The position numbers were made by a program, and so were the translations under genes. Below the pieces are notes generated by a model. That model did no database searches. It was given only the letters and a program-made list of their open reading frames with translations, and was not told the DNA's origin. Positions 5,284-33,537 of a DNA stretch of 64,000 bases are shown here, piece after piece; position 1 is the first letter of the stretch; every line of letters starts with the position of its first letter. This DNA comes from an uncultured Clostridia bacterium. Lineage in GTDB: Bacteria > Bacillota > Clostridia > TANB77 > CAG-508. The stretch lies in contig OZ006978.1 of the NCBI GenBank assembly GCA_963931155.1, positions 131,357-195,356 on the forward strand. Reading direction: 5' to 3'.

Positions 5284-6735
5284 TTATCTTTGCAATTTTA
5301 CTACATCACTCTTTGCAAAATATTTTTTTAAGTTATTTGTAGTTAATTGTAAAATTAATAGTAGTGCTATAATTATTCCTACAAAATAAATATCATAAAT
5401 ATAGCTTTCTACTTTAAACATATAAATACTATTTGCAATTTGTGCAAACAAACTTATTCCTATAATATTTCTTATCATATTTGGCTTTTGCCACATCAAA
5501 CTTGCAAATATCCATATTATATACCATTGTTGGAAAGTGCCTAAAATTAATGAAAATAATATTAAAGCAGTATTATATTTTCTAATAATTTTACTCCACT
5601 TTATTTTTTTGGTAGTTAACAAATCTATGCAGAATTTTATATAGTAAATAAAAAATACTGTATACATTATGTATTTCAATGGTTTTAACATATTTGGCAT
5701 TACAACATAAATTGATGAATATATAGATTTTGCATATTTTTCTGTTTGTACAAGCATTGCAGATAATATACTAAAATCTTTAAAATAAATTAAATATTCT
5801 AATGCCAAAATTAGTATAAATAATAACCCATATTGTATGCATTTTGCAAATCTTTTTCCTAAATTTTCTTCTTTTCTAAAAAAGTATATTATATATACAG
5901 GCAATAGTAGTACTGTAAAATACTTGATTCCTGTTGCAATGCTTAAGAAAATTATACTAGGTATTATTTTTTTCTTTCTTAATAAAAAATATAATGATAA
6001 AAGTATGAAAAATACTACAATTATATCATTATGTACATTTCCAATATATTCTATAAAAATAAATGGATTTAAGCCGTATAGTTTAGCAAAAAATTTTCTT
6101 TTAGTAATTTTATACACTAAATACGTATTTGCAATATGTATAAGTAAATTTACAAGCTTAAATATAATAATTGCAACATCAACATTTTTAAATGACAAAA
6201 CTGAGCAAATTTTAAAAATAGTCTGAGCAGTAGGTCCATATATTACAGTTGTATTACTCCAACCATTTTCTGCACCTTTTTCTAATATCTCATCATTTAT
6301 ATTTTCCTCATTTGTATCATAATAATCTTTTACAGTTGTGTAATATGGATTTTGTTTGTATACTCCATCTAATTCTCCAACTCCCATATAATAAAATATA
6401 TCAGAAGATGTCCATGGCAACATAAACATGAATATAATTCCTATAATTCCTACAAAGATTAATATTTGTTTTATATTTTTAAATATATCTTTTCTTTTTG
6501 TTATTAATATATATACTATAAATATTGTTAAAAACAAAACTATAAAAACAATTGCTGGAATCATTTTATTTACATCATTATTTAAAAAGAAATTATAATA
6601 TGTTTTAAAGTTCATTATAGTTTTATTTTGTATTATATATATTAAGGAAGGAATAATGAAGCATATACTTAGTAATATAAACAATGATTTTAATATATTA
6701 TCTTTCATCTTCTCTTTTTTAGTTTCTTGATTCAT
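5284..6735 (-). CDS. polytopic membrane protein, GT-C-fold glycosyltransferase-like (paralog A)
   Basis: About 12 predicted TM helices; acidic/aromatic first external loop (TSSDIFYY...NPYY); long collinear similarity to 10048-11520 (VIYGP...NVDVAIIIFKLVNLLIHI...LYGLNPFIFIE..NVHND). Confidence 0.5.
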   Translation of the reverse strand: MNQETKKEKMKDNILKSLFILLSICFIIPSLIYIIQNKTIMNFKTYYNFFLNNDVNKMIPAIVFIVLFLTIFIVYILITKRKDIFKNIKQILIFVGIIGIIFMFMLPWTSSDIFYYMGVGELDGVYKQNPYYTTVKDYYDTNEENINDEILEKGAENGWSNTTVIYGPTAQTIFKICSVLSFKNVDVAIIIFKLVNLLIHIANTYLVYKITKRKFFAKLYGLNPFIFIEYIGNVHNDIIVVFFILLSLYFLLRKKKIIPSIIFLSIATGIKYFTVLLLPVYIIYFFRKEENLGKRFAKCIQYGLLFILILALEYLIYFKDFSILSAMLVQTEKYAKSIYSSIYVVMPNMLKPLKYIMYTVFFIYYIKFCIDLLTTKKIKWSKIIRKYNTALILFSLILGTFQQWYIIWIFASLMWQKPNMIRNIIGISLFAQIANSIYMFKVESYIYDIYFVGIIIALLLILQLTTNNLKKYFAKSDVVKLQR

Positions 6736-6807
6736 TTTTTCTCCTATAATAATTATTCATTCTTTTATTGCACTTTTCTTTTATATTATTTTTTTATGTA
6801 GATAGGT

Positions 6808-7341
6808 TTAATGTTTTTCTTCAAAAGGATCAAATCCACCTTTTCCATAATATTCGTGAAATTTTACTTCATTTCCTCTTAAAAATGGATTTATATAATC
6901 ATAATAATAAACATTTACTTGAAGAAACGAGTTTACCACAGCAACATACTTTTTATTATTCTTATATATTACATGCTCTGGTCTATCTAATATAGCTACT
7001 GTAAAAAATCCCAGAAGTGGTCCTATTAAGCATAATATTACTATAATAAATACAACTATCATAATTATTACCGACTTTAGTATTTTATTTGTATGATTTT
7101 TTATTATCTGTACAATTCCTAAAATAAGACCTAGTAAAAGTAATATAACTATTACTTTGTATACCCAAATTCTAAAAGTAATAGAAAATACTATATTTAA
7201 TAAAAAGTTTAATAAAATAAATAATAATAGAACCATGAGTGTGAAGACTAAAATATTTTTTCTTATTTTAATTAATAATTTTTTCATTTTGATATCTCCT
7301 TTTATACTAAGCAGATTATTTTCTTTGGTATAAAATTTCAA
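6808..7341 (-). CDS. hypothetical membrane protein
   Basis: Several hydrophobic helices; start may be the internal MKKLL; no motif. Confidence 0.4.
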   Translation of the reverse strand: MKFYTKENNLLSIKGDIKMKKLLIKIRKNILVFTLMVLLLFILLNFLLNIVFSITFRIWVYKVIVILLLLGLILGIVQIIKNHTNKILKSVIIMIVVFIIVILCLIGPLLGFFTVAILDRPEHVIYKNNKKYVAVVNSFLQVNVYYYDYINPFLRGNEVKFHEYYGKGGFDPFEEKH

Positions 7342-7422
7342 GTTTTTAGCCTTTTTTAAAATCTAAAATTTTCCTTTATATATAAAGGTTTGTCCGTTTT
7401 TATGGCTATAATATATAACCTC

Positions 7423-8481
7423 CTATTGTTTATTTTCTCTTTTGTTTAATTTCTTGGTATTCAACAAAAGTTCATCAAAATCCGATATATAAATTCTGTC
7501 CTGTATTACTCTGTATTTTTCAAACTCTGTTTCAGCATGAATTTTTGCCATCTCTGCTGAAATTTTTCCATTGTCTTTTAAAATTTCATGATCCCATAAT
7601 TTTAAAAATCCATTTAATCTTTCTTCCCAATCTGCCATTGTCATTGGAATATGTCTCATAGCTTGCATTTCTGCTAAATCCAAATATGCAGATACCATTC
7701 TTTCTAGTTGCCCTATTTCTTTTTCAGATAAATAGTTTTTGGCAACAATAACATCATATTTATGTATTTTGCTGTTAGGAGCTCCTTCCCAAGAAGTTAA
7801 CCCCATGTGTTCTTTAGTACTATCTGCTCTATTATAAATTATTTCGGCAGCAGTATTCCCAGATACTGCATAATGTAATTTGTTTTGAACTGATGTAAAA
7901 AATCTAATTGTAGCTTTTGCTGTTTTATCATAATCAATTGAAGTTGCATAAATATCAGTAATTTTTTGATAAAATTTTCTTTCTGACATTCTTATTTCTC
8001 TTATACGTTCTAATTGCTCTTCAAAATATTTTTCTGTTAAAATTGAGCCACCGTTTTTTAGACGTTCGTCATCCATTACCCAACCTTTTATTGTATAATC
8101 TTTTACAATTTGATTTGCCCATTTTCTAAATTGTACAGCTCTTTCATTGTTCACTTTAAAACCCACAGCAATAATCATTTGTAAATTGTAATGTGCAACA
8201 TTCCTTGAAACATCTCTATTTCCTTCTTTTTGAACTATCTCAAAATTTCGGATAGTTGAATTTTCTTCTAATTCATTATCTTCATATATTTTTTTAATGT
8301 GATAATTAATTGTTCTTACATCAACTCCGTAAACTGCTGCTAACATTTTCTGTGTAAGCCATATATTTTCATCTTCATATCTAACTTCTACTGATTCTGG
8401 ATTGTCTCCTACTGCTGCCACATAAATTAAATACTCAGCTGCACTGGAACGAATTGTTATTTCATTTTTCTTTCTATCCAT
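7423..8481 (-). CDS. RhuM-family virulence-associated protein (full length)
   Basis: WLTQKxM, YYNLxxIIxVGFxV, FRKWANQ, FYQKITDIYATSIDYD, SVQNKLHYA - signatures recalled for Pfam Virulence_RhuM. Confidence 0.75.
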   Translation of the reverse strand: MDRKKNEITIRSSAAEYLIYVAAVGDNPESVEVRYEDENIWLTQKMLAAVYGVDVRTINYHIKKIYEDNELEENSTIRNFEIVQKEGNRDVSRNVAHYNLQMIIAVGFKVNNERAVQFRKWANQIVKDYTIKGWVMDDERLKNGGSILTEKYFEEQLERIREIRMSERKFYQKITDIYATSIDYDKTAKATIRFFTSVQNKLHYAVSGNTAAEIIYNRADSTKEHMGLTSWEGAPNSKIHKYDVIVAKNYLSEKEIGQLERMVSAYLDLAEMQAMRHIPMTMADWEERLNGFLKLWDHEILKDNGKISAEMAKIHAETEFEKYRVIQDRIYISDFDELLLNTKKLNKRENKQ

Positions 8482-8501
8482 TCAATATCACTCCATTTCC
8501 T

Positions 8502-8822
8502 TTAATTTTTATAATTTACTGCTTTTACTTCATAATATGCCTTTAAACAATCTCCTTTTTTCTCTCCTTGTCCATCTCCTTCATCTACATACCAATACCA
8601 TTCTTTAATTACTTTTAAAAACCAACTTGTATATGGAAATCTTGCAGTAGAGCCAAAGGCATTCCAATCATCATCAGTTCCTTCAAAGATTCCTTTTGCA
8701 ATTTCTTTTATTGTTTTGCTTTTATAACTGTTAAAATGTTTTCTAATTGCATTTAAGCATTGTTCTTCTTCATAGCCTGCTCTTTTCAAATTTCCTTTAT
8801 CAAATATAAATTCCATTTTCAT
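8502..8822 (-). CDS. hypothetical protein (106 aa)
   Basis: ORF immediately upstream of and co-oriented with the RhuM gene (20-nt gap). Confidence 0.4.
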   Translation of the reverse strand: MKMEFIFDKGNLKRAGYEEEQCLNAIRKHFNSYKSKTIKEIAKGIFEGTDDDWNAFGSTARFPYTSWFLKVIKEWYWYVDEGDGQGEKKGDCLKAYYEVKAVNYKN

Positions 8823-8904
8823 AGATTTTATTTTCCTTTCATGACATATAAAACTCTACTGTTTTTTTATTTTTCCTCGCAACTCGTAATTTGTCTTTCT
8901 AATA

Positions 8905-9207
8905 TTACTTTATTAAATTTGTATAATATAAGATTTCTTTACCTAATTTTTTTGCATATTCTATCTCTAAATTTGTAGTATCTCCGATATAATTATTTAC
9001 ATTTACTACTAATATTGCATCAGCCAATTCTATTCTTTTAAAATGTTCTTCTTTTAACTTTTTTAGTTGCTCATCTGTTCTTTCATAATTTTCTAACACA
9101 GGATAAACTGGTGTAAGAATACAATTACTTTCTAAAGCCATTTTCTCTGCTGTTTCCATCATTTCTTTTTTAAACTTTAAACTTCCACATAATGTTATTA
9201 CTTTCAT
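8905..9207 (-). CDS. nucleoside 2-deoxyribosyltransferase-like small Rossmann protein (paralog 1)
   Basis: N-terminal KVITLCGS (compare KIYLAGP of NDT-like families), later acidic/Gly motif; shares start motif with 37421-37795. Confidence 0.4.
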   Translation of the reverse strand: MKVITLCGSLKFKKEMMETAEKMALESNCILTPVYPVLENYERTDEQLKKLKEEHFKRIELADAILVVNVNNYIGDTTNLEIEYAKKLGKEILYYTNLIK

Positions 9208-9391
9208 TTCTCAATCTCCTATATAAATTACTATTTATAACTACATCTTATTTCTTTTTTAAATCTTTTGAATAATATATCATATACAAATTAAATCTCC
9301 ATCTCTAATTTCTTCATCAGTCATATCTATAAAATAATTTTTTATTGTCTTTTCATATTTATCAAAACCTTGTTTTACATAGAAAAGAATA

Positions 9392-9958
9392 TTATATATT
9401 TTCTTTGTCCCTATTTATCTGCTTAGCATACCTATCTTCCTCTGAAAATATGCATCCGCAATATTTTTGCATATATAATCCAAGTTCTCTTGCTTTGGCT
9501 TGTCCTTCTCTAAATCCTACTCTGAAGTCTCTATATAAAAATGTTAATCCATATTTTTTTGCTAATGTTTCTCCAATTGTTTTTATTATGTCATGTTTTT
9601 GGTATGGACTAACTAAAAGAGTTGTTGTAAAACAATCATATCCATTCTCTTTTGCATACTTTGCAGTCTGCTCTAGACGAACTGGATAGCAATAATCTTG
9701 GCATCTAGTTTCTAAAGAGTTTACTACATTTTTGCAGAACTCATCTAGTCCATAATCTTCTTCAAATATTGCTTTTACATTAATTGATGCTGTATATTCT
9801 TTTAATGTGTCTCTTCTAGTTTTATATTCTATATATGGATGTATATTAGGGTTATACCAATATACCGTAGGTTCTATTCCTTCCTCTCTTAAAGAATCTA
9901 TGCAATACACACTACATGGTGCACAGCAAGTATGCATTAACAATTTCATTTTAGTCAT
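9392..9958 (-). CDS. queH: epoxyqueuosine reductase QueH (DUF208)
   Basis: LLMHTCCAPCS motif and conserved Cys pattern characteristic of QueH. Confidence 0.85.
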   Translation of the reverse strand: MTKMKLLMHTCCAPCSVYCIDSLREEGIEPTVYWYNPNIHPYIEYKTRRDTLKEYTASINVKAIFEEDYGLDEFCKNVVNSLETRCQDYCYPVRLEQTAKYAKENGYDCFTTTLLVSPYQKHDIIKTIGETLAKKYGLTFLYRDFRVGFREGQAKARELGLYMQKYCGCIFSEEDRYAKQINRDKENI

Positions 9959-10047
9959 CTCTTCTTTCTAAGTTTTAATTTTACAACTTTTTCTATTCTT
10001 TATTATGTCTTTTATTTTCTTCCTATAATTTTACTATATTTTTATAT

Positions 10048-11520
10048 TTATCTAATTAACTTTATTTTTCCCTCTTCTGTTCTTTCTAGTTTCATATTCA
10101 ATGTTTTAATTAATAACATTCCTACTATCATAATTATTAAAAATGGTATTCCCAGTATTTGTTCTTCGCTATGTAATGCAAATGATGCAAAATTTGCTAT
10201 TTGACTTGTATAACTTAATATTAAAATTGTTTCTTGGGCTTTTCTTTTTAGGAAGAACATAGTTGGAAATAGCCACATTATATACCATGCATTAAAATTG
10301 GTTATTAATACAAATGTAAATATTAAAAGGAAAATATTATATTTTCTAATAATTTGTATAAATCCAATTTTCTTTTGCACTAATAACCTAACACAAACAA
10401 TCACATAAAAAACTGCAAATATCACTAGAGCAAGTGTTTGAATTATTTCTACTTTATCTTGTCCAAAATATTCATATATAACATACATTATAGACCTATT
10501 GTATTTAGATTGTTGTATAAACAAACCTGCCAAAACTCCAAAATCTCTCATATATATTAAATAAAATAATGCTAAAATTGCCAAATATTCTATTCCACAC
10601 AATATGCAATATATTATTCTTTTCTTTATATCTTTATTTCTTACACTATAAATAACAATAAATGGAAGTATCAATATTGCTAAATATTTAACAGCTGTTG
10701 CAAATGCGACACATGTCACTGCTAAAAACAAATTCTTTTTTCTTGTTGTAAAATATATAGCAAGTAAAATAAATAATATTATGCATATATCATTGTGTAC
10801 ATTTGATAAAGCCTCAAACAAAATAAATGGATTTAATCCATACAAAATCATGAATAATTTTTTTCTAGTTATTTTGTATATTAATATTGTATTTAATATA
10901 TGTATTAATATATTAAATATTTTAAATAATAATAGTGCCACATCTATATTCCCCAAAGACATTGCAGATAGCCCTGTACAAATTAAAGTCCAAAGCGGAC
11001 CATATACTACTGTTTCATATTTCCAACAATTTGCCACTTTATTAAACATCATATCACTTTGTCCAGTTTTATCTGTTATCTCTCCGGTTGATGTATAATA
11101 TGGGTTTTCTCCATAATGTGCTGATGACCAACCATTTGCTATATATGAGTATACATCTGTGCTTGTATATGGAATTATTACTCCAAATATTATTGAAACT
11201 AAAATCACAAATACTATTATTTTTTTAGTACTAATATTTTTGCATTTTTTAGCTATTAGCATATAAGCTAAAAATAATATTGTTATTAGTAAAAAAAACA
11301 TTAGTGCATTATTTAGCATTTCTGCTTTATTTACTGGGATTTTAAAAAAATATGTCCATACATAATAAAATCCATATACAGTTTTGTTTTTTATTAAATA
11401 TGTAATTGATGGTATTGCTAAAATTATAGATGCAAAAATAAATATAATTATAGGCAAATTTAATTCTTTTCTATTATTACTTTCAAGCTTTTTCTTCTTT
11501 GTTACTTTTTCCATTTTCAA
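10048..11520 (-). CDS. polytopic membrane protein, GT-C-fold glycosyltransferase-like (paralog B)
   Basis: 490 aa, same architecture and many shared blocks with 5284-6735. Confidence 0.5.
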   Translation of the reverse strand: MKMEKVTKKKKLESNNRKELNLPIIIFIFASIILAIPSITYLIKNKTVYGFYYVWTYFFKIPVNKAEMLNNALMFFLLITILFLAYMLIAKKCKNISTKKIIVFVILVSIIFGVIIPYTSTDVYSYIANGWSSAHYGENPYYTSTGEITDKTGQSDMMFNKVANCWKYETVVYGPLWTLICTGLSAMSLGNIDVALLLFKIFNILIHILNTILIYKITRKKLFMILYGLNPFILFEALSNVHNDICIILFILLAIYFTTRKKNLFLAVTCVAFATAVKYLAILILPFIVIYSVRNKDIKKRIIYCILCGIEYLAILALFYLIYMRDFGVLAGLFIQQSKYNRSIMYVIYEYFGQDKVEIIQTLALVIFAVFYVIVCVRLLVQKKIGFIQIIRKYNIFLLIFTFVLITNFNAWYIMWLFPTMFFLKRKAQETILILSYTSQIANFASFALHSEEQILGIPFLIIMIVGMLLIKTLNMKLERTEEGKIKLIR

Positions 11521-11602
11521 TCCCTTTTATTTGAATAAGGGAAGGTTAATTGTTATTCTTCCTTTTTCCTTCCCCTTTCCTATTTTTTAATCTTCATCAG
11601 AT

Positions 11603-12610
11603 TTAATCTTGGTTATATGGAATTCCCATATGTTCATATGCTGCAGGAAGTGCAACTCTTCCCCTTACAGTTCTTGATATGAAACCTATTTGTATTAAAT
11701 ATGGTTCATATACATCTTCTATTGTATCTACTTCTTCTCCTAAAGTAGTGGCAATAGTTTCAATTCCTACTGGTCTACCTCTATATTTTATAATTAATGT
11801 TTCTAAAATTTTTCTATCAATTTCATCTAAACCTAAGTCATCTATTTCTAATTTGTTTAATGCTATTTTTGCTATTTTTAATGTTATATTTCCATCACCT
11901 AAAACAGCTGCATAATCTCTTACTCTTTTTAATAATCTATTTGCTACTCTAGGTGTACCTCTTGATCTTCTAGCTATCTCTATTGCTGAATCATTATCTA
12001 TATTTATTTCTAAAATATTTGCAGACCTCTTAACTATTGTTGTTAAATCTTCTGTATTATATAATTCTAATCTATGTATAATTCCAAATCTGTCACGAAG
12101 TGGTGTTGCAAGTGATCCTGCCTTAGTTGTAGCTCCTATTAGTGTAAATTTAGGCAAATCTAGTCTTATAGACCTTGCACTTGGCCCTTTTCCAATTATT
12201 ATATCTAATGTATAATCTTCTAATGCTGGATATAATATTTCTTCTACGCTTTTGTTTAATCTATGAATTTCATCAATAAACAAAATATCAAATTCTGATA
12301 AATTTGTAAGTAATGCTGCTAAATCTCCTGGCTTGCTAATAGCAGGGCCTGACGTTATTTTTATATTTGAATTCATTTCATTAGATATAATATTAGCAAG
12401 AGTAGTTTTTCCAAGTCCTGGTGGTCCATATAAAAGTACGTGGTCTAGTGCTTCCCCTCGTTTTTTAGCCGCTTCTATGTATACCTTCATATTTTCCTTT
12501 ACTTTATCTTGCCCTATATATTCATTTAAAGTTTTAGGTCTTAATGAATTTTCTAATCTTTCCTCTGATGCATCTGTAAGTTCCGGACTAATTAGACGTT
12601 CTTCTTCCAA
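11603..12610 (-). CDS. ruvB: Holliday junction branch migration helicase RuvB
   Basis: [15 protein letters not shown] Walker A, DEIHRL, C-terminal winged helix; typical 335 aa. Confidence 0.95.
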
Positions 12611-12624
12611 ATTTATACCTCCAT

Positions 12625-13804
12625 TTATTCTTGCCTTCTTAAATGTTTTTTATCTACTGTTTCCTCTGTTTTCTCTTCATCATTTTTTTCTATGTTTTGT
12701 TCCGTTGTTTTATCAGTCTTATTATTACCATCTGATAGTAATCTTGACATATCTTTATATCCAATTGTTGCAATTGCAACAATTAATAACGCAAAAGATA
12801 GTGCTTTCCATATTCCACTTTCTAATAGGATTACTGCAAACATTCCAAGTGTAGCTGTAATTCCATACATTATTAAAACTGCTTGTTTTTGTGAATATCC
12901 TTTTGCCATTAATTTATGATGCAAATGTCCTTTATCTGGCTTAAATACTGCTTTTATAGATTTTCCTTTTACAATTCTTCTGCATATTGCAAATAAAGTG
13001 TCAAAAATTGGCATTCCAAGTATTATAATTGGAGCTATTAGTACAAGAGCCGTATAAGTTTTTGCAACACCTAAAATTGATATTATAGCAAGCGAAAATC
13101 CCATAAAATTTGAACCAGTATCTCCAATAAATGTTTTTGCTGGGCTGAAATTAAAAGGTAAAAATCCTACAATGCCACCTGCTAATGCTGTTATTAATAC
13201 AATAGCTATTAATGGTGATTCATTTAATGCAAATACCATAAGAAGAGATAAACATGAGATTAATGTAACACCAGATGATAGTCCATCTAATCCATCTATT
13301 AAATTTATAGCATTTGTAATTCCAACAATCCAACAAACTGTAATAATATATGAAAATATACCACTTATTACAATTTTCCCTTCTGTAAAAGGAATAGATA
13401 TATGTTCAATTCTAATTCCACAAGCAACTACAATAATTGCTGATATGATTTGTGCCGAAAGTTTAACATAACTTGGTATTCCTTTTACATCATCCACATA
13501 ACAAATAATTCCAAGAATTACTATTCCTATAAAAAATCCTGTCATTTTTATATAATAATTCTCAGGTCCAAATAAATCTATTTTTCCTTCTAACTGAGTT
13601 GTTATTAGCAAATATATAATAGAAACAAAAAATCCAGCTATTACAGCTAATCCTCCGAAGTCTAGGCATTGGCTTTTTGTTTATCCTTCTATCATTTGGT
13701 ATATCAATTGCTCCAACCTTTTTTGCCCATCTCATTGTGTGTGGTGTAATTACAAATGCTGTTATAAATGCTAATAAAAAAGCTATTGCTATATCTCCCC
13801 ACAT
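12625..13804 (-). pseudogene. UDP-GlcNAc:undecaprenyl-phosphate GlcNAc-1-P transferase (TagO/WecA/MraY family), split by a +1 frameshift near 13657
   Basis: ORF 13562-13804 encodes N-terminus (...IDIPNDRRINKKPMPRL) and ORF 12625-13611 the rest (NAINLIDGLDGL signature). Removing one base in CTTCGGAGG restores ...PRLGGLAVIAGFFVSIIYLLITTQ... Confidence 0.6.
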
Positions 13805-13890
13805 ATTTTTTCCTCACTTTTGCTTATTTTTCTAGTATATATTTTTCAAATTTAGTGTTTGTCTATTAAATTAAGTTTATACATTAAAAT

Positions 13891-14586
13891 TTAATATTCT
13901 AAAATTTCTACATTATATCCAATAAAAAGTCCACTTTCTATCACGCCAGGAATACTTTTTATTTGTTTTTCTAGTTGTTTTTCGATGCTTTCAAATTTAA
14001 CATCTAGTATAACATTTGAATTTTCTGTTATAACAGGACCATCTTTTCCTTTTGCTTTTCTTAATGTTATGTCCCTTCCTCCAAGCTTTATTAATTCTTC
14101 TTTTACATAGTTTATACTTTCCAAAACACACTCAACAGGTATTTTAAATTTTTCTCCTAGTTTAGATACCTTTTTAGATTTGTCAATTAAAATATACGTA
14201 ATTGGTGAATTTACAATATTTAATTTTTCTTTAAAACTTGCTCCACCTCTGCCTTTAATAAGCCAACTATTATCATCTACTTCATCTGCCCCATCAAAAC
14301 TCCAGTCTGGCTTGTATTCCATTAAACTAGCGGTTCTTAAACCCAAATAATTACATAGCATTTTAATTTCATATGATGTTGGTATTGCTATGATATCTAG
14401 TTTTTCTTTTTTTACTCTGTCTGCAATAGCCATAGTTGCCATATATGAGGTAGAGCCAGAACCAAAACCTATTACTTGTCCATCTTGTACTTTACTTGCT
14501 ATAATTTCTCCCAATTTTCTTTTTTCTTCTATATTTGAAATATTATCGAATTCAATTTTGTTTAATATATCTTTACTCCAATTCAT
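13891..14586 (-). CDS. rpiA: ribose-5-phosphate isomerase A
   Basis: GFGSGST, DGADEVD, KGRGGA motifs. Confidence 0.85.
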   Translation of the reverse strand: MNWSKDILNKIEFDNISNIEEKRKLGEIIASKVQDGQVIGFGSGSTSYMATMAIADRVKKEKLDIIAIPTSYEIKMLCNYLGLRTASLMEYKPDWSFDGADEVDDNSWLIKGRGGASFKEKLNIVNSPITYILIDKSKKVSKLGEKFKIPVECVLESINYVKEELIKLGGRDITLRKAKGKDGPVITENSNVILDVKFESIEKQLEKQIKSIPGVIESGLFIGYNVEILEY

Positions 14587-14708
14587 TTTTAACCTCGCTC
14601 GTATAAATTTCTACTTTTAGCATTATATCATTATCTTGTAGCATAGTAAACCTTATTTATTAATAAATTTAGAAAAAGCTATATATATTTTTTAGTTTTA
14701 TTATGTTT

Positions 14709-15656
14709 TTAATTTACTGCAAAATTAATTCCTCTTGCAATTACATCTTTCATTTTTTCAATTAATCCGTCAATTTCCTTTGGAGTAACAATAAAATTAT
14801 ATTCATCTGGTGATAATACTTCTTTTATTAAATTGTATTTATCTTCCTCTTGTAATTTATTTAAAAAATCATTTGATTCCCCTTGATTTTGAACTTCACG
14901 TATTAATAATGTTAAACTATCTGCTGCTATAGTAGCCGCATCAACAACAGTTGGTATCCCTATTGCTATAACTGGTATTCCCAAAGTATTTTTGCTTATT
15001 TCTTTTCTAGTGTTGTCCACTCCTGCACCAGGTACTATTCCTGTATCGGCAAGTTGTATAGAACTACTTATTCTTTCTATACTTCTTGATGCTAATGCAT
15101 CTATTACTATTAATAATTTAGGTTTGATATTTTCTACAATTCCTTTTAAAATTTCCAAGGTCTCTATTCCTGTAGTTCCAAGTACCCCGGGAGATATTGC
15201 ACTAATTTCTCTTGTTCCTTCTTCTAAAATTTCTGGCATATATTGTAATAAATGTCTTGTAATATCTATTTCATTTATTACTTTAGGCCCTAAAGCATCT
15301 GGTGTTACATATATATTACCAAGTCCCACCACAAGTATGGAGTCTAATCCTGATATTTGATTTTGTATTAGTTTTTTTAGTTCATTAGTCACTACTTCAG
15401 ATGTCCTTTGTATTCCATCTTGAGAAATATTTTTAAAGTTTTTTATATCTATCGTAATATAATTTCCTATTGGTTTATTAATAGCTTTTTCTCCATTTTC
15501 GTTAGTTACTTTAACTCTTGAAATATTTATATGTTCTTCTTTTGTTTCCCCTATATTTTCCTCTTCTGTCTCTATTCCATCAATTTCTTCTTGTATATTA
15601 TGTGCCTTTCTATAAAGGTCACGTCTTTCTAAAGCTAAATCAGTTCTAAAATTATA
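14709..15656 (-). CDS. gpr: germination protease (spore endopeptidase)
   Basis: MYNFRTDLALE... N-terminus typical of GPR; start reassigned to second ATG, which has a GGAGGT SD 9 nt upstream. Confidence 0.8.
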   Translation of the reverse strand, partial: YNFRTDLALERRDLYRKAHNIQEEIDGIETEEENIGETKEEHINISRVKVTNENGEKAINKPIGNYITIDIKNFKNISQDGIQRTSEVVTNELKKLIQNQISGLDSILVVGLGNIYVTPDALGPKVINEIDITRHLLQYMPEILEEGTREISAISPGVLGTTGIETLEILKGIVENIKPKLLIVIDALASRSIERISSSIQLADTGIVPGAGVDNTRKEISKNTLGIPVIAIGIPTVVDAATIAADSLTLLIREVQNQGESNDFLNKLQEEDKYNLIKEVLSPDEYNFIVTPKEIDGLIEKMKDVIARGINFAVN

Positions 15657-15791
15657 CATTTTTACACTAACCTCCATTTGAGCAATTTATACTCCATCTA
15701 AATTTACTTTCTAATCTCCGAAATTAGAGAATAAAAAGAATTTATCATTAGTGTTTTACATTTTTATTTTTTTATACTACATAAACAAAAT

Positions 15792-15826
15792 AAAAGGAAA
15801 TATTTTCATTAAATACTTCCTTTTAA
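15792..15826 (-). terminator. rho-independent terminator after the HTH-repeat gene
   Basis: AAAGGAAgTATTT...AAATATTTCCTTT stem followed by U-rich tract on the minus transcript. Confidence 0.45.
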
Positions 15827-15840
15827 ATAATATATATATT

Positions 15841-17931
15841 CTATCTTGCTTCGCTTTCTTTGCTTCTATCTTCTCGAAGCTTTTTATCCAATTCATTCTT
15901 TCTCTGAATAATCTTTTTTCTTGAAAACAATTTTCTCATAAGTGTTTGATATGCATTAAAATTTATTGCTGAAAAATCAATTTTATCTTTTATACTTTCT
16001 AAACACTTTATTGCTGATTCTATATCTCCATTTTTATAATAATCTTTAATTTGTAAAACCATGTTAGAAATATATTCAACTTGCTCTTGTTCATCGGTTG
16101 TTGATTGTGCTTCTGATAAATTTTGTACATCAGTTGATGTTTGTGCTTCTGTTGAATTTTGTACATCAGTTGATGTTTGTGCTTCTACAACATTCATTTG
16201 AGAATCGTCTGTTTTTCTACCTATCTCATCATTTTGACCAATTATTCCTTGAGTTTTTAAAAATCTTATATCATTTTCAATAGTCGGTATAGAAAATCCT
16301 AATTTTTCTGCAATTTCAGGTGTCGAAATAGTGCCATATAAATCTGCTATTTGAGTTCTCCTATCTTTAATTGCTTTTCTTTTGGTAGTAGATAAAACAT
16401 TTATTCTTTTAGAGCTAGCCTCTATTTTTCCTCTTTGTTTTAATTCAACAATATCGGATGAAATTGTACCTATTGATACCCCCAATTCTCGAGCAATTTC
16501 TTTTTGAGTCATTTTTCCATATAATTCCGCTACTTGTTCTAATCTGGCTTCTTTTTTAGGATCTTTTCTTGCAATATTTCTTCTTTTAACTCCTTCTTCA
16601 CTTATTATTCCAATACTTATTAAGTATTTTACATCATTATAAACTGTCCCATATGAAACTCCTAAAAGTTTAGCTATTTGTTTATAACTCATTGTTCCAT
16701 ATAGCTTAGCTACTTCCATTCTTCTTTCATGTAACCTATCTACTTCTTCTATAGATGGAACTACTATACGCTTAGATTGCTGTGATTCATCAGCAATCAT
16801 CCCCATTTCTCTTAGAGCAACTAAATCATCATACACGGTATTTGGTGAAACATTAAGCTCTTTTGCAATATCTTTTTGGCTCATTTTTCCATATAGTTTT
16901 GCTACTTGCATCCTTCTGCTCTCTATTTGTTGCAATGTTTCTCTTGATGTTTTTCTCTTTAATCTGCTTGCTTCTATTAATCCATGTTCTTTTAAATATC
17001 TTATATCTTCATTTATAGTTCCAACAGTCACATCTAATTCTACTGCAATTCTTGATATTGGAATTTTTCCACGTAATCTAGCTACAGTATTTCTTCTTTT
17101 TTCTAATAACTCTTTTTGGGTTTGTAATACTCCTTTTGAAGTTAAAAAATTAATATCATTTTTTATAATAAATTCCGACACCCCAACTTCTGTTGCTATT
17201 TGTTGAACTGATACTTTTCCATATAATATTGCTACAATTTGTCTTCTCACAGCTACTGCTTCTCTATTTCGTATTAATGCTTGCCCACTTTGTTTAGAGG
17301 AACTTTCACTTTTAGTTCCTAATACCATACTATCTTCATTTACTTCATGTTCTTTTATAAATTCTATGTCTTTATCAATAATTCGTGATGATATTGTTTT
17401 AAATACTTTATATATAGTATCTATTGAAATACCAGCTTTATATAAAATTGCAATTTTTCTTCTTCTTTCTTGTAAACTATCTTCTGCCCCTTTATATTCA
17501 GCTATTATTTTAGGGACTTCATCTGCTTCGCCTGAAATTTCTTCTACTTCTTCATGAGCTTCATCTGCTTTTGTTGATTCGTTTTCTTGTATTTGTCTAC
17601 TATTTGATGCTACGTGACCTCTTTGCGATGGTATTATCCCCATAAATAGTAAATCTTCTTCAACTAAAGCTTTGGATACCCTCATTTGCTTTGCTATTTC
17701 TTCTACTGAAAGACCATAATCTAAATGTAATGAACGAATTTGGCTTCGTCTATCTTTATACTGAATTTCTCTTGATGGATTTGGCTTAGTTTTAGAAATT
17801 TTTAATCCTTCTAAATATGTTACAATGTCTGCCAAAGTCTCATGTGTTATATCAGCAATTTCTCCATAACTTAAACCTTGTTCTGCTAATTCTTCAATTT
17901 TTTTATACTCCATTTCTATATACAACTCCAA
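15841..17931 (-). CDS. large protein of about 10 tandem helix-turn-helix modules (sigma-70 region-4-like repeats) with C-terminal S/T/Q-rich repeats
   Basis: Recurring ~50-aa module xLYGKMSQKDIAKELNVSxxTVxxDxxxLxxxGxI found about 10 times; no other domain recognised. Confidence 0.6.
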   Translation of the reverse strand: MELYIEMEYKKIEELAEQGLSYGEIADITHETLADIVTYLEGLKISKTKPNPSREIQYKDRRSQIRSLHLDYGLSVEEIAKQMRVSKALVEEDLLFMGIIPSQRGHVASNSRQIQENESTKADEAHEEVEEISGEADEVPKIIAEYKGAEDSLQERRRKIAILYKAGISIDTIYKVFKTISSRIIDKDIEFIKEHEVNEDSMVLGTKSESSSKQSGQALIRNREAVAVRRQIVAILYGKVSVQQIATEVGVSEFIIKNDINFLTSKGVLQTQKELLEKRRNTVARLRGKIPISRIAVELDVTVGTINEDIRYLKEHGLIEASRLKRKTSRETLQQIESRRMQVAKLYGKMSQKDIAKELNVSPNTVYDDLVALREMGMIADESQQSKRIVVPSIEEVDRLHERRMEVAKLYGTMSYKQIAKLLGVSYGTVYNDVKYLISIGIISEEGVKRRNIARKDPKKEARLEQVAELYGKMTQKEIARELGVSIGTISSDIVELKQRGKIEASSKRINVLSTTKRKAIKDRRTQIADLYGTISTPEIAEKLGFSIPTIENDIRFLKTQGIIGQNDEIGRKTDDSQMNVVEAQTSTDVQNSTEAQTSTDVQNLSEAQSTTDEQEQVEYISNMVLQIKDYYKNGDIESAIKCLESIKDKIDFSAINFNAYQTLMRKLFSRKKIIQRKNELDKKLREDRSKESEAR
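16100..16190. repeat. 36-nt tandem repeat (about 2.5 copies) inside the HTH-repeat gene
   Basis: TGTGCTTCTG... recurs at 16106, 16142 and 16178; encodes STDVQNSTEAQT repeats. Confidence 0.8.
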
Positions 17932-18065
17932 CCAGAATTATTTTACATAAAGATTTTACCATCTTTTGTATGATTTTTCAAGTATTTATTTGTTTTTTGA
18001 CTGTTATTAAAGCTTTCTTAACCTTTATTTATTTTTCTTGATTTAGATATACAAATTTTTATACA

Positions 18066-18119
18066 AAAAAACAAATCTTTCTCCAAAATTTAAATTTTAA
18101 AGAAAAAGATTTGTTTTTA
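18066..18119 (-). terminator. terminator downstream of LPXTG gene (bidirectional hairpin)
   Basis: AAACAAATCTTT...AAAGATTTGTTTTT stem with flanking A/T runs. Confidence 0.5.
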
Positions 18120-18154
18120 TTGTATTATTATAAATAAAAATGCAAGATATATTT

Positions 18155-18958
18155 CTATTTTTTATTAATTTCACTTGTTTTATATTTTACAATTCCTACA
18201 ATTGCTAAGATAAACAACGCAAGTGTTATAAGTGTTAAAACTATATTAGCCCCTGTTTGTGGCAATCTAGTATCTTTTACCATTGTCTCATCAAAAGAAT
18301 TAATTACATTTTCATCATCTGTCTCATCATCTATTTGAACTTCATTATCTTTATTTGGTTCAGTATCTATTGTAATATCTTCTCCAGGAATCATTGTATT
18401 AGTATTTTCGTTTGGTTCTTCTTCATCTGGTGTTTCTGTTCCGGGATTATTTTCTCCTGGGTTTTGAGTTCCTGGCACTAAACTATAATCCATTTCACTT
18501 CTTGGATATGTTTCGTTTAAATTATTATCATTTGTAACAGTAAAACTATTTATTGCAACTTTTCCATTTGTTGTTTCTGTAACTCTTGATGGATCTAAAT
18601 TAAATATGATTTTTCCAATTTCAATATTAGGTGTTGCAGAATCTGTTGTAAATTCAACTGTTTTATTTTCTGCTGATACTGTCACATTCCATCCTTCATA
18701 TGCTTCACCTTTTACTGTATCTACATGGTTAGTATCAAAATCAAGTGTAGCAGTTGCTTTCATAGGTGAATTTTCTGGCACATTAGCAAAATCTCCCATG
18801 TGAATTGAAAATATTATTTGATTATCTTGTTTAGTTGCTTGATAAGATACATTAACTGATGCTGGTAATTCGTTTCCATCTGTTGCATTAACTATATTCA
18901 AATTAAATGATAGTACAATTAAAACTATTAATATAAAAATTGCTAATACTTTTTTCAC
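18155..18958 (-). CDS. LPXTG cell-wall-anchored surface protein
   Basis: Signal peptide, LPQTG sortase motif followed by hydrophobic segment and KYKTSEINKK tail. Confidence 0.85.
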   Translation of the reverse strand: MKKVLAIFILIVLIVLSFNLNIVNATDGNELPASVNVSYQATKQDNQIIFSIHMGDFANVPENSPMKATATLDFDTNHVDTVKGEAYEGWNVTVSAENKTVEFTTDSATPNIEIGKIIFNLDPSRVTETTNGKVAINSFTVTNDNNLNETYPRSEMDYSLVPGTQNPGENNPGTETPDEEEPNENTNTMIPGEDITIDTEPNKDNEVQIDDETDDENVINSFDETMVKDTRLPQTGANIVLTLITLALFILAIVGIVKYKTSEINKK

Positions 18959-19082
18959 TTCTATCTCTCCTTTTTATTATTATACAAAATTTCATTCTTT
19001 TATATTTTACCACATTTAGTATTATATAACAACCCTATAAGTATTACAATTATGTTCCAAAAGTGTAATATCTATATAAAAT

Positions 19083-19135
19083 CAAAAAAATAAGAACTTT
19101 AAAGTGTTATATACTTACAAAGTTCTTATTTTTTC
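19083..19135 (-). terminator. rho-independent terminator after the Spo0E-like gene (bidirectional)
   Basis: AAGAACTTT...AAAGTTCTT stem flanked by A-run and T-run. Confidence 0.55.
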
Positions 19136-19139
19136 TTAA

Positions 19140-19301
19140 TTAAATCTTCTTATTCTTATTAAACTTATTAATTTTTTCCATCTTTAGATTGACATATTTA
19201 TCAACAATTCTGCTTTGTTTTAATATTTTTTCATAAGACTCTCCTTTTTCTATTAATAAGTCTAATTTTCTTTTGTGATAGTTAAGTAATGTATCTAACA
19301 T
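19140..19301 (-). CDS. Spo0E-family sporulation regulatory protein (aspartyl-phosphate phosphatase-like), 53 aa
   Basis: Not in ORF track (below 60 aa). ATG at 19299-19301 with AGGTGA SD; MLDTLLNYHKRKLDLLIEKGESYEKILKQSRIVDKYVNL fits the Spo0E-like helical hairpin pattern. Confidence 0.5.
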   Translation of the reverse strand: MLDTLLNYHKRKLDLLIEKGESYEKILKQSRIVDKYVNLKMEKINKFNKNKKI

Positions 19302-19348
19302 GGTCTATCACCTCTAATTGCATTATAGCATATTGAAAATATATTATT

Positions 19349-19365
19349 TGTCGAAACCTGTCGAA
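19349..19365. promoter_or_regulatory. two tandem perfect Spo0A boxes (TGTCGAA) spaced 10 bp
   Basis: TGTCGAAACCTGTCGAA about 50-65 bp upstream of the Spo0E-like start codon. Confidence 0.5.
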
Positions 19366-19429
19366 AAAATAAAAATTTTTTCATTTTTTATTTCCCATAA
19401 ATTTTTATCCGCTTCAAATTGTATAAATT

Positions 19430-20413
19430 TTATGAACAATATCTACAAAGTATTGATTCTAATCCAATATTAATATCAATTAAACCAACCTTGTAATTTG
19501 CATCTAAATTCACAAACTCATCCATAATTTTTTCAATTTCATCTTTAGAAAAATATCTAGCTTGATTTTTATATTTATTTATTAAAAACATCTGGTTCGG
19601 TTTAAGTTTCATGCTTGTTGCTAAATCTTTCTTGTATTTCTCAGCTATTTTAACTATATATAATTTTTTAAAATGATTATATAAAGTTATTAATATTTTC
19701 TGAATTGGTTCTCTTTCATATATTAAATTATTTAAGACTTCCATTGCTTTTTTTATATCTTTTTTTCCTAAATTATCTGTTAAATCAAATATTACACTAT
19801 CCATTTGCTTTATAGTTAATAAGTCAATTTCTTTTTTTGTTATTGTTCCATTAGTACCAACATATTCTATTAATTTTCTAATTTCATTAATTAAATCTTG
19901 CATATTAGTACCAACACATTCTATAAAATATTTTGCAGTCATATTGTCTATTTGTACTTTATATGCCATACATATTTTTTGTATATTTTGCATGGCTTCA
20001 GGAAGTTTAAGAACAGCAAATTCTTTTACTTCACCTAATTTTGAAATAGTTTTATATAAAGTATTATTTTCAGCAGATTCTTCAACAAAAACTAATTCTA
20101 CCGCATCATTTATTAAACCTATATTTTCGCTAATATAATCAGCTATCTTTTTAGATAAATTAATCAAAGCAAGTTCTTGACCTTTAGCTGTCTTTTTTTC
20201 TTTATTAAAAAGTCCGGTATCTTTTGCAATAATAAACTTTTTTGCATATCCAAAGGCAGGAGTTTCAATATCAGAAATCAATTCTTTTACATTTGATGCA
20301 TCTATTTGTATATAATTAATACCTAATATTAATTCTCCAAATTCCTTCTTTATTTTTTTTAATCTTGATTCTAATAAATAGGTTTCTTCTCCATAAAGTA
20401 ATTTTACAGACAT
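19430..20413 (-). CDS. holA: DNA polymerase III delta subunit-like
   Basis: LLYGEETYLLE N-terminal motif and about 330-aa length typical of HolA; no Walker motifs; start set at ATG preceded by AAGAGGGAGG. Confidence 0.5.
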   Translation of the reverse strand: MSVKLLYGEETYLLESRLKKIKKEFGELILGINYIQIDASNVKELISDIETPAFGYAKKFIIAKDTGLFNKEKKTAKGQELALINLSKKIADYISENIGLINDAVELVFVEESAENNTLYKTISKLGEVKEFAVLKLPEAMQNIQKICMAYKVQIDNMTAKYFIECVGTNMQDLINEIRKLIEYVGTNGTITKKEIDLLTIKQMDSVIFDLTDNLGKKDIKKAMEVLNNLIYEREPIQKILITLYNHFKKLYIVKIAEKYKKDLATSMKLKPNQMFLINKYKNQARYFSKDEIEKIMDEFVNLDANYKVGLIDINIGLESILCRYCS

Positions 20414-20509
20414 ATGCCTCCCTCTTTTCAAAGTTTGAGTATAATTATAATTAGTTTTTTAACCTTATTCCTTTGTTATTTATTCACCAAGCATTTTTAA
20501 TCCAAATTT

Positions 20510-20995
20510 TTAAAGTTTAACAGAAAATTTAGATGAGTGTGCATGACATATAGCTGCTGCCATACTATCTGTTGTATCATCTAGTTTTGGTAGCTTATCA
20601 ACTCCTAAAATTGTTTTTACCATTTTTTGAACTTGAATTTTATCAGCTCTACCATAGCCTACAACAGCTTGTTTTATTTGAAGTGGAGTATACTCATATG
20701 TAGGAATGTTTTTCCTACATCCTACAACCAGTATCACTCCTCTTGCTTGTGCAACATTAATTGCTGTTTTAGCATTATTATTAAAAAATAACTCCTCTAC
20801 AGATATAGCATTTGGTTTATATGTATCAATTATATTCTCTAAATCATTATTTAACTTTAAAAGTCTTAAAGGAAATGATTCACCGGCATTAGTTAGTACT
20901 GCTCCAGATGTTATAAGTTTAAATCTATTTCCTATATAATCTATTATGCTATAGCCTGTAATTGCAAATCCAGGATCTATTCCAAGTATTCTCAT
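20510..20995 (-). CDS. ruvC: crossover junction endodeoxyribonuclease RuvC
   Basis: MRILGIDPGFAITGYSII... catalytic Asp/Glu pattern, 161 aa. Confidence 0.9.
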   Translation of the reverse strand: MRILGIDPGFAITGYSIIDYIGNRFKLITSGAVLTNAGESFPLRLLKLNNDLENIIDTYKPNAISVEELFFNNNAKTAINVAQARGVILVVGCRKNIPTYEYTPLQIKQAVVGYGRADKIQVQKMVKTILGVDKLPKLDDTTDSMAAAICHAHSSKFSVKL

Positions 20996-21040
20996 ATTAT
21001 TACCTTCTTTTTGTGTTTCTCTTTTGAAATTTTATTTATA

Positions 21041-27904: not shown

Positions 27905-27910
27905 ATATAA

Positions 27911-28026
27911 ACTGGCGACAACCTATTTTCTCAGCAGGGTAACCCACAAATATCGTCGGCACATTGGAGCTTGACTTCTGTGTTCGGGATGGGAACAGGT
28001 ATTTCCTCCATGTCATAATCACCAGA
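27911..28026 (-). rRNA. rrf: 5S ribosomal RNA
   Basis: TCTGGTG...CGCCAGT helix I, CCCGAACAC and internal conserved blocks. Confidence 0.9.
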
Positions 28027-28238
28027 AAATTTATTTCAATACAAACTACAATAACTTCTTAAAGTAATTTGTATGAATTTACTTGTTTGTTTGTATATTG
28101 TGTGCTTCTTTTTTTGTACTCTCTTAGTATAATACTTTTTGTTTTCTTTTTCAAGTACTTTTACTAAATTTTTTTTACTTTTTTAGCACACTCAAAAATA
28201 CATAGAGAATATCTTTTCGGTTCTTCTTTATTTTTTGT

Positions 28239-31121
<2,883 letters not shown>

Positions 31122-31125
31122 TCTT

Positions 31126-31241
31126 GCTTCAGCTAAACTTCGCATTGCTGTGTCAAACTTCAGTAAAAATTCCCTCGATATACAAACGTATTATCTCGTC
31201 AATTTTTCTTCGTTTTCCTTGCTCTGCTCGTTTATCTTATG
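31126..31241. repeat. ITS repeat copy A (about 115 nt)
   Basis: GCTTCAGCTAAACTTCGCATTGCTGTGTCAAACTTCAGTAAAAATTCCCTCGATATACAAACGTATTATCTCGTC... shared with copies B and C. Confidence 0.8.
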
Positions 31242-31362
31242 CAATCTTAAATTGGTTTCATTGTTAACAAATCCTCAATGTTTAACATTGTCTCTTTGCT
31301 TTTCCTAGTTATGTCTAGTTTACCTTTAATATTCTCTATATATTTTTCAATGTGCTATTTGA

Positions 31363-31478
31363 GCTTCGTCTAAACTTCACATAACTGTGTCAAGCCTCAA
31401 TAAAAATTCCTCGATGTACTAATGTACTATCTCGTCATTTTTATTTTGCTTTCCTTGTTCTGTTCGTTTATACAGTGC
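31363..31478. repeat. ITS repeat copy B
   Basis: About 80 percent identical to copies A and C. Confidence 0.8.
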
Positions 31479-31510
31479 TCACAATTATCTTTCAATTTAG
31501 ATAATCTTTG

Positions 31511-31586
31511 TGGTGGAGCTAAAGAGAGTCGAACTCTTGACCTCCTGCTTGCAAGGCAGGCGCTCTAGCCAACTGAGCTATAGCCC
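31511..31586 (-). tRNA. tRNA-Ala(UGC)
   Basis: GGGGCTATAGCTCAGTTGGCTAGAGCGCCTGCCTTGCAAGCAGGAGGTCAAGAGTTCGACTCTCTTTAGCTCCACCA. Confidence 0.95.
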
Positions 31587-31638
31587 CATAACTTAAGTCA
31601 ATGTACTATATAAAAAGTACATTGAAAAATAAACAATA

Positions 31639-31756
31639 AACTTCTCTGGCTTCGTCTAAACTTCGTATTGCTTCGTTAAGCTTCAGTAAAAATCTCCTCG
31701 ATATACAAACGTATTATCTCGTCGATTTTTCTTTGCTTTCCTTACACTACTCGTTT
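31639..31756. repeat. ITS repeat copy C
   Basis: Third copy, between 16S 3' end and tRNA-Ala. Confidence 0.8.
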
Positions 31757-31784
31757 ATACTGTGCCATTTAGAAACTCTTCTCT

Positions 31785-33343
<1,559 letters not shown>

Positions 33344-33537
33344 AATGGTATATATATTCGCATATTTCTATGCTCTTACATATCGTTTTTAACTAAAGTT
33401 TATTTAGCTCTTTTTTACGCTTTTGCGTATTATTTTTTTTGGTAGATTTACTACCGCTTTATTGGTTTCTCAAAGTTTATTGTTTACTTTTCAATGTGCT
33501 TTTTATGTTCTCAGTCGGTCTCCCGACGACAAGATTA

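Follow-up and report, generated by a model that had tools for sequence, protein, structure and literature searches.

The minus strand of the 64-kb window analysed here (by which we mean the whole stretch of 64,000 nucleotides, positions 131,357 to 195,356 of contig OZ006978.1 from an uncultured, spore-forming Clostridia bacterium) carries a gene whose product contains a long series of helix-turn-helix (HTH) modules. This gene, referred to below as the poly-HTH gene, belongs to the minus-strand order ruvC, holA, a 53-aa open reading frame (ORF), a gene for an LPxTG-anchored protein, the poly-HTH gene, gpr, rpiA, a glycosyltransferase gene and ruvB. Its modules and flanking signals, described below, all lie on the same strand. 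The 696-codon ORF (15841..17931) extends from TTG at 17931 to the stop codon TAG at 15843..15841. In all database gene calls, the start codon is the ATG found six codons after the TTG, at 17913..17911; with GGAG 12 nt upstream of this ATG, the product is most likely the 690-aa protein beginning there. The amino acid numbering used for the units counts from the TTG at 17931, and the C-terminal domain accordingly ends at aa 696.

Since the gene is repetitive internally, it might be considered a collapsed-repeat assembly artefact or a decaying pseudogene, and an assembly collapse was the refutation anticipated in an earlier, sequence-only reading of this region. However, the DNA identity among the units is just 49–61%, and an independent 261-kb contig from another sample, colinear with positions 21000..13000 of the window at 99.66% identity, carries the gene at the same length. 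Intact orthologs are found in the same neighbourhood in two more assemblies, the ratio of nonsynonymous to synonymous substitutions (dN/dS) is below 1 in all gene segments, and the promoter and the terminator are conserved. The ORF is therefore real: the collapse is excluded by the independent contig and the two further assemblies, and the artefact or pseudogene explanation, refuted by the intact orthologs, the dN/dS values and the contig together, retains practically no probability. The 261-kb contig (L014, ERZ21549425 s1155.ctg001421l) comes from the same organism as the window, and indels interrupt nearly all of its genes, probably as a result of error-prone long-read assembly.

The modular structure of the protein was delineated by three approaches. 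Pfam searches with the whole protein matched HTH_11 (1.1e-35, in six separate stretches), HTH_23 (7.8e-31) and Sigma70_r4_2 (2.6e-25), and NCBIfam returned matches to the HTH end of Csa3 and of extracytoplasmic function (ECF) sigma factor models, the latter spanning only profile positions ~116–165. A unit hidden Markov model (HMM), built from the clearest copies in the protein and then scanned along it, identified six strong units (aa 226–277, 276–327, 336–387, 400–451, 460–511 and 521–572) and two weak ones (aa 58–104 and 153–200), to which the AlphaFold model adds a three-helix module at aa 7–48. The protein contains nine modules, namely the divergent units A, B and C and the canonical units D1–D6. 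The sequence-only reading had proposed a tandem array of about 10 HTH modules; the array itself is borne out by the Pfam, unit HMM and AlphaFold analyses, while the count comes down to six canonical and three divergent modules.

The canonical array (16216..17256) comprises six units of ~52 aa, D1 (17101–17256), D2 (16951–17106), D3 (16771–16926), D4 (16579–16734), D5 (16399–16554) and D6 (16216–16371), all of which were seen by Pfam, the unit HMM and AlphaFold. They follow the pattern RRxxVAxLYGKxSxxEIAxELGVSxxT[IV]xxDIxxLxxxGxI, corresponding to helix 1, helix 2 and the recognition helix. At the DNA level, the periodicity of the array is apparent as a 44-nt repeat, present four times with a spacing of 180–192 nt. 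Pairs of canonical units, D5 not included, share just 35–54% protein and 49–61% DNA identity, so the array is old, in agreement with the earlier description of the units as moderately conserved rather than recently expanded. Among the divergent modules, unit A (17788..17913; aa 7–48) is a three-helix module with a SYGEIAD motif, recognized by AlphaFold, with helices at 2–17, 22–29 and 33–46 and a predicted local distance difference test score (pLDDT) of ~78. Unit B (17620..17760; aa 58–104) is an HTH ending in EDLLxxGIIP that scores 14.1 bits with the unit HMM and has a pLDDT of ~87; the A–B module is conserved in relatives. Unit C (17332..17475; aa 153–200) is a degenerate HTH-like module, preceded by an acidic linker (aa 105–152, net charge −10).

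On the scale of the single unit, the best matches are to HTH_11 (4e-7 to 2e-10) and HTH_23 (~3e-7 to 6e-7). The gathering threshold of HTH_11, 25 bits, is passed by D3 (30.1 bits) and by the consensus unit (40.9 bits), although the match is unspecific, as many other HTH families score almost as high. The previously suggested likeness to sigma-70 region 4 and LuxR-type HTHs needs some refinement: Sigma70_r4_2, with its cut-off of 25.7, is borderline at 22.2 and 26.4 bits per unit, Sigma70_r4 reaches 22.7 bits per unit (cut-off 24.1), and GerE, with 17.4 bits per unit, lies below its cut-off of 23.5. The Pfam and NCBIfam scans of the protein found HTH models only, with no sigma regions 2 and 3 and no receiver or ligand domains. 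The units are generic three-helix HTHs.

The AlphaFold model, run from a five-sequence alignment, has a mean pLDDT of 67 and a predicted template modelling score (pTM) of 0.21. All units are predicted to fold as three-helix HTHs, at a pLDDT of 80–87, whereas the inter-unit linkers fall below 50. Because of these low linker values and the low pTM, the units appear to have no fixed mutual packing and would resemble beads on a string. No beta-hairpin wing was modelled after the recognition helix, as helix 3 runs into a low-confidence linker, and strand-like elements are limited in the model to isolated bridges between helix 1 and helix 2. The D1–D6 region has a net charge of +17, and three of its five linkers are basic (+4, +4 and +5).

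Downstream of the array, an in-frame 36-nt tandem repeat (16087..16186; 2.8 copies, 90% matches) encodes a linker rich in S, T, Q, D and E (STDVQNSTEAQT). The sequence-only reading had described this repeat near the C-terminus as recently expanded; its presence in frame is confirmed, but it is not purely recent, because a diverged ortholog also has it, in 2.4 copies with 80% matches. What had been taken for a Lys-rich tail proved to be a conserved three-helix domain (15844..16092; aa 614–696; pLDDT 88) with a basic last helix, an acidic end and a terminal Arg (...SKESEAR; 15844–15870). The window protein conforms to the family pattern of this domain, Y..M...IK.YYK.GD.E.A...LE....V.FS, followed by the Arg-ended acidic tail. 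The domain is common to 30 representatives, and in 23 of them an Arg stands at the very end after an acidic stretch (...EDEER, ...DGEER, ...SEAR). The C-terminal domain and the terminal Arg constitute the invariant signature of the family.

The positional variability of the units is informative as to their possible function. Over the 117 units of the family that were compared, entropy peaks at positions 17, 28, 29, 32, 33, 37 and 41, whereas positions 4, 5, 11, 20, 21, 34, 38 and 42 are near-invariant and conservation extends to positions 30, 31 and 35. Such an i, i+3/4 periodicity is characteristic of a recognition helix that is conserved on its buried face and variable on its exposed face. 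The gene also varies between strains in a neighbourhood that is otherwise well conserved. The L003 strain is 99–100% identical to the window over 8 kb, except for ~400 nt (16300..16680) that form a strain-variable cassette corresponding to units D5–D6, where the identity drops to 61–73%. The recognition helices of D5–D6 in L003 differ from those of the window, as exemplified by VSIGTISSDIVEL against ISEHQVYYYVKEL. In the L002 strain, the flanking proteins are 91–100% identical to those of the window, while the poly-HTH protein has ~50% identity in the tblastn local alignment and 63% over the stretches matched by phmmer, and is two units shorter owing to an in-register deletion that fuses D1 to D3. 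In the comparison with L002, the neighbouring genes have a dN of 0.003–0.035 and a dN/dS of 0.03–0.21, and the segments of the poly-HTH gene a dN of 0.07–0.36, a dS of up to 1.1 (in D5) and a dN/dS of 0.3–0.7. The dN of the poly-HTH gene thus exceeds that of its neighbours 10- to 100-fold. The elevated dS speaks for alleles that are old or imported, and not just for relaxed constraint. The loss of units, the exchange of cassettes and the fast substitution suggest rapid change in the DNA target or in the pressure acting on it.

The family to which this protein belongs is small. An exhaustive HMMER search of 1.84 billion representative proteins yielded 149 matches at E <= 1e-3 and 17 at E <= 1e-30, and a word-indexed search of 5.8 billion proteins yielded five. 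A hand-made degenerate DNA pattern for the A–B module, first checked on known loci, was found in five of 185,579 species-representative genomes, all of them metagenome-assembled genomes titled 'uncultured Clostridia bacterium'; it had no match in the JGI metagenome contigs. No relatives were found on viral contigs, no relative of the whole protein was found among PDB sequences, and a literature search on tandem HTHs found no description of such a bacterial family. We conclude that this is a very rare, undescribed and fast-evolving family of uncultured Clostridia. Its members have 1–12 units and are often encoded as tandem paralogs; those with one unit resemble ordinary regulators, consisting of an HTH and the C-terminal helical domain, which is possibly an oligomerisation domain. 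In L001 (ERZ13617487 NODE_1937, 6444–14046), five family paralogs of 268, 281, 567, 1178 and 161 aa stand in a row directly after uvrA, on a contig that ends before any gpr, and the 1178-aa paralog has two copies of the C-terminal domain and two A–B modules. No paralog of the poly-HTH gene was found elsewhere in the window. Some of the weaker matches are multi-HTH proteins of another kind, whose units, up to 12 in number, are of other types than those of the family, and poly-HTH arrays seem to have arisen more than once. Metagenomic proteins of this kind, with 5–12 tandem HTH units of other types (e.g. EKILELYNQGxxxKEIAKxLNVS... or ILELLEKGLSQKEVGEQLGVS...), include P0020, P0039, P0044, P0047, P0101 and P0045.

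The family is frequently linked to gpr, the germination protease gene, which is the downstream neighbour of the poly-HTH gene (14709..15677; Peptidase_A25, 5.5e-95). The window lineage shares this arrangement with four of five further checkable lineages (L005, L006, L008 and L012): in each of them, family genes stand directly upstream of gpr and on its strand. The gpr protein is just 64–67% identical to the window's in L005, L006 and L008. The contigs of P0006, P0007 and P0020 are too short to reveal any gene context. In L006, L008 and L012, the arrangement is uvrA, a cluster of family paralogs and then gpr, whereas the L009 family locus has no gpr nearby. The linkage is common, but this may simply be the site where the family arose and duplicated.

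The transcription signals of the gene are also conserved. A sigma-A-like promoter with an extended −10 element lies at 17945..17981, with the −35 box TTGAAA at 17981..17976, TG at 17961..17960, the −10 box TAAAAT at 17958..17953 and the sequence TTATGT at 17950..17945; a generic promoter scan flagged the same site (17981..17945). The elements of this block, TTGAAA-N14-TGnTAAAAT-N2-TTATGT, are invariant in all 10 aligned upstream regions, which represent loci and paralogs, the window's included (among them L001, L002, L004, L006, L008, L010 and L012), and they are kept across lineages in which gpr is only ~65% identical. The TTATGT just downstream of the −10 box could be the start site or an operator. 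The consensus of this predicted promoter argues for vegetative expression and not for a sporulation sigma factor. Directly after the stop codon, there is an intrinsic terminator hairpin with a U-tract (15780..15825; −17.5 kcal/mol, z −5.5), and on the other side the terminator hairpin of the upstream LPxTG gene (18061..18125; −23 kcal/mol, z −6.7) insulates the poly-HTH transcription unit. With this promoter and the flanking hairpins, the gene is predicted to be its own transcription unit. Upstream of gpr (15678–15790, minus strand), a GTATA ... CACTAAT pair with a spacing of ~19 nt loosely recalls, as judged by eye, forespore sigma-F/G promoters.

The closest natural relative of the unit profile among solved structures is Cbp2 (2LVS), both HTH domains of which are matched (E 9e-6; 18 and 8.7 bits per domain); the Foldseek comparison with Cbp2 gave 28% identity at a probability of 0.97 and E 0.14. 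Cbp2 has two non-interacting HTH domains connected by a flexible basic linker and binds CRISPR repeats, that is, reiterated DNA (PMC3597662), and Cbp1, which has three HTHs, forms chromatin-like structures on CRISPR arrays and binds transposon sites as well (PMC10883916). The tandem arrangement of non-packing three-helix HTH domains on flexible basic linkers (PMC3597662) is also seen in the present AlphaFold model, and the Cbp proteins offer a precedent for the binding of reiterated DNA and for chromatin-like structures. On the other hand, they are crenarchaeal, have only two or three units as against nine here and up to 12 in this clostridial family, and are without the C-terminal three-helix domain and the Arg-ended tail; moreover, no CRISPR or CRISPR-like array occurs near the poly-HTH gene within the 64-kb window. 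We infer that the poly-HTH protein would work like an extended Cbp design but is probably not a Cbp family member, the likeness lying within the generic HTH superfamily. The top PDB match of the unit profile, the 'CAP repeat' 8VD6, is a de novo designed repeat protein (PMC12339374), and we dismissed it as convergence on an idealised sequence.

The units share the pattern of helix 1, helix 2 and recognition helix with HTH_11/DeoR proteins, sigma-70 region 4 and SpoIIID, the last of which (2L0K) matches the unit profile at 5e-4. Those proteins differ in carrying one HTH (two in AraC), paired with a sensor, an oligomerisation domain or sigma regions 2–3, and the wing hairpin of HTH_11/DeoR proteins is not modelled after helix 3 in the poly-HTH protein. 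The top Foldseek matches of the whole model, the tandem winged-helix proteins SelB (WH1–4), UFL1 and RPC62, are likewise strings of small helical DNA- or RNA-binding domains, but they bind RNA or the ribosome and have wings. None of the whole-model matches in the PDB was significant (E at least 0.018), as expected for a flexible, multi-domain model. Among defence-system models, the PADLOC matches cover only the HTH parts of the CasR, Csa3, CARF and WYL models, with no defence-specific match, and PHROGs gave generic HTH matches only.

On the larger scale, the architecture can be compared with eukaryotic multi-HTH readers, such as Myb R1R2R3, the Pax paired domain and Pipsqueak, and with modular arrays, such as TALE proteins and C2H2 zinc fingers. 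They have in common with the poly-HTH protein the serial arrangement of DNA-reading modules on one chain, a conserved scaffold with variable base-facing residues, and arrays that gain and lose units from one relative to another. The likeness is one of architecture, implying neither homology nor, in the present case, a code of one module to one site, and the units here diverge far more among themselves than TALE repeats do. This comparison also draws on published work (PMC3597662).

Taken together, these results suggest, with a probability of about 0.5, that the poly-HTH protein is a multivalent and probably sequence-reading DNA binder. The HTH identity of the units, the basic array, the variable exposed face of the recognition helix and the Cbp2 profile match support this assignment, as do the C-terminal domain and the terminal Arg as family invariants, the family-wide promoter, the flanking hairpin terminators and the hypervariability between strains. 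The recognition helix of each canonical unit would sit in a major groove, with a sequence preference that may vary from unit to unit, and the basic linkers could contribute contacts to the DNA backbone or the minor groove. At high avidity, the whole array would then recognise either one long composite site or DNA in which the target is reiterated. The C-terminal domain may mediate self-association or partner binding, perhaps including the pairing of family paralogs. Binding would likely result in repression or in a local chromatin-like organisation of the bound DNA, as with Cbp2 and Cbp1 on CRISPR repeats. The interpretation given in the sequence-only reading is supported in part, a multivalent DNA-binding role being plausible; the family context, the cassette variation between strains, the common promoter and the gpr linkage lay beyond its reach.

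Several observations weigh against such a DNA binder. The whole protein has a net charge of only ~+1, with units A and C and two linkers being acidic. The dN/dS of 0.3–0.7 stays below 1, so that positive selection is not demonstrated, and no DNA repeat array that could be a candidate target was found in the 64-kb window. HTH folds can also bind protein or RNA, and the SelB winged helices are among the Foldseek fold matches. Variable exposed residues would be expected of a protein-binding surface as well. Finally, the similarity to Cbp2 is weak and confined to the generic HTH core.

A more far-reaching version of the multivalent DNA binder, which we regard as unlikely, is a bacterial modular DNA reader, in which a long DNA address would be specified by which units are present and how they follow one another, and strains would re-target the protein by swapping, deleting and duplicating cassettes. 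If true, such a reader would be analogous to TALE and tandem zinc-finger arrays and would extend the repeat-chromatinising principle of Cbp1 to up to 12 modules, possibly for silencing mobile DNA or for organising a reiterated chromosomal element. To our knowledge, bacterial transcription factors almost always have one HTH, or two in the AraC types. This family, by contrast, has members with nine to twelve independent HTH modules per chain, together with a family-specific C-terminal domain and promoter, and strains that are nearly identical in other respects carry alleles differing by whole modules; it is a new architectural variant of a familiar DNA-binding fold. Should the modules read DNA serially, this would represent a prokaryotic array-type DNA recognition with rapid re-targeting, and a possible scaffold for engineering long-site DNA binders.

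Other functions have to be weighed against that of a sequence-reading DNA binder. The many HTH–DNA contacts might be weak and coat or bridge DNA regardless of its sequence, as in a non-specific nucleoid-associated or DNA-wrapping protein; in that case, it would be a lineage-specific chromatin protein and a new type among the few nucleoid proteins of bacteria. The basic charge of the array and of most linkers, the near-consensus sigma-A-like promoter, which is compatible with high expression, and the multivalency combined with a possible oligomerisation domain would all suit this role. However, the wrapping role proposed in the sequence-only reading fits poorly, because the exposed recognition-helix positions are the most variable ones rather than being conserved and basic, and because the gene is hypervariable between strains: an evolution 10–100 times faster than that of the neighbours, with strains swapping cassettes, is unusual for a core chromatin protein. 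The extreme rarity and lineage restriction of the family and the near neutrality of the whole protein point in the same direction, and we consider this explanation rather improbable. The same hypervariability lends itself to a different explanation, that of a fast-evolving silencer or sensor of mobile DNA such as phages and transposons, a counterpart of zinc-finger and TALE arrays in which module turnover would track invaders. Hypervariable alleles within a conserved neighbourhood, including a D5 segment whose dS of 1.1 suggests imported or ancient alleles, the loss of units in register, the tandem paralog clusters with 1–12 units and the binding of transposon sites by Cbp1 (PMC10883916) are in line with it. 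Yet the protein has no effector domain, the PADLOC matches are to the generic HTH of CasR and Csa3, the neighbours are housekeeping genes and not a defence island, no relatives were found on viral contigs and dN/dS is below 1. This role appears unlikely, slightly more so than that of a nucleoid protein.

The position of family genes immediately upstream of gpr in the window lineage, L005, L006/L008 and L012 raises the question of a sporulation or germination factor tied to gpr, for instance one that packages DNA in the forespore or is itself cleaved by the Gpr protease, and the unit core EIAxELGV seems to resemble the HTH core of alpha/beta-type small acid-soluble spore proteins. Such a role is very improbable, given that the gene is served by a sigma-A-like promoter of its own, that a strong terminator lies between it and gpr, that the L009 locus is without gpr nearby, and that an origin and duplication of the family at this site can explain the adjacency. 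The Gpr cleavage motif, E-[IF]-[AG]-S-E, is absent from the window protein and present in only six of 153 family proteins, and the protein was rejected as a Gpr substrate. Still less credible is a mimic of sigma-70 region 4, either the anti-sigma decoy of the sequence-only reading or a binder of the RNA polymerase flap. The Sigma70_r4_2 and ECF sigma models are indeed matched when the scores are summed over the units, but a single unit reaches 22–26 bits against the cut-off of 25.7, and HTH_11 and HTH_23 match better. With sigma regions 2 and 3 absent, surfaces that differ from unit to unit and no anti-sigma gene nearby, the decoy finds no support.

Among the neighbouring genes, the LPxTG gene (18155–18958, minus strand) encodes a 267-aa protein with a signal-like N-terminus, an LPQTG sortase motif and a membrane anchor, for which no Pfam match was found. 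Its strain variation (91% amino acid identity, dN/dS 0.21) is above that of most housekeeping neighbours, with rpiA being similar (92%, 0.17). The 53-aa ORF between holA and the LPxTG gene (19140–19301, minus strand) keeps its position in all three strains and is 100% identical in L002; a guess by eye that it is Spo0E-like was discarded, as it has no Pfam match at all. Elsewhere in the window, a complete rRNA operon occupies 27910–33344 on the minus strand, with the 16S gene at 31795–33344, a tRNA gene at 31514–31587, the 23S gene at 28237–31121 and the 5S gene at 27910–28026. Its 16S–23S spacer contains direct repeats, namely a 125-nt repeat at 31121 and 31644 (84%) and a 45-nt family in three copies. 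Two 79-nt stretches (7926–8004 and 54727–54805), 46.8 kb apart, are 89% identical and lie inside the ORFs 7423–8481 and 54398–55267, which are probably paralogous.

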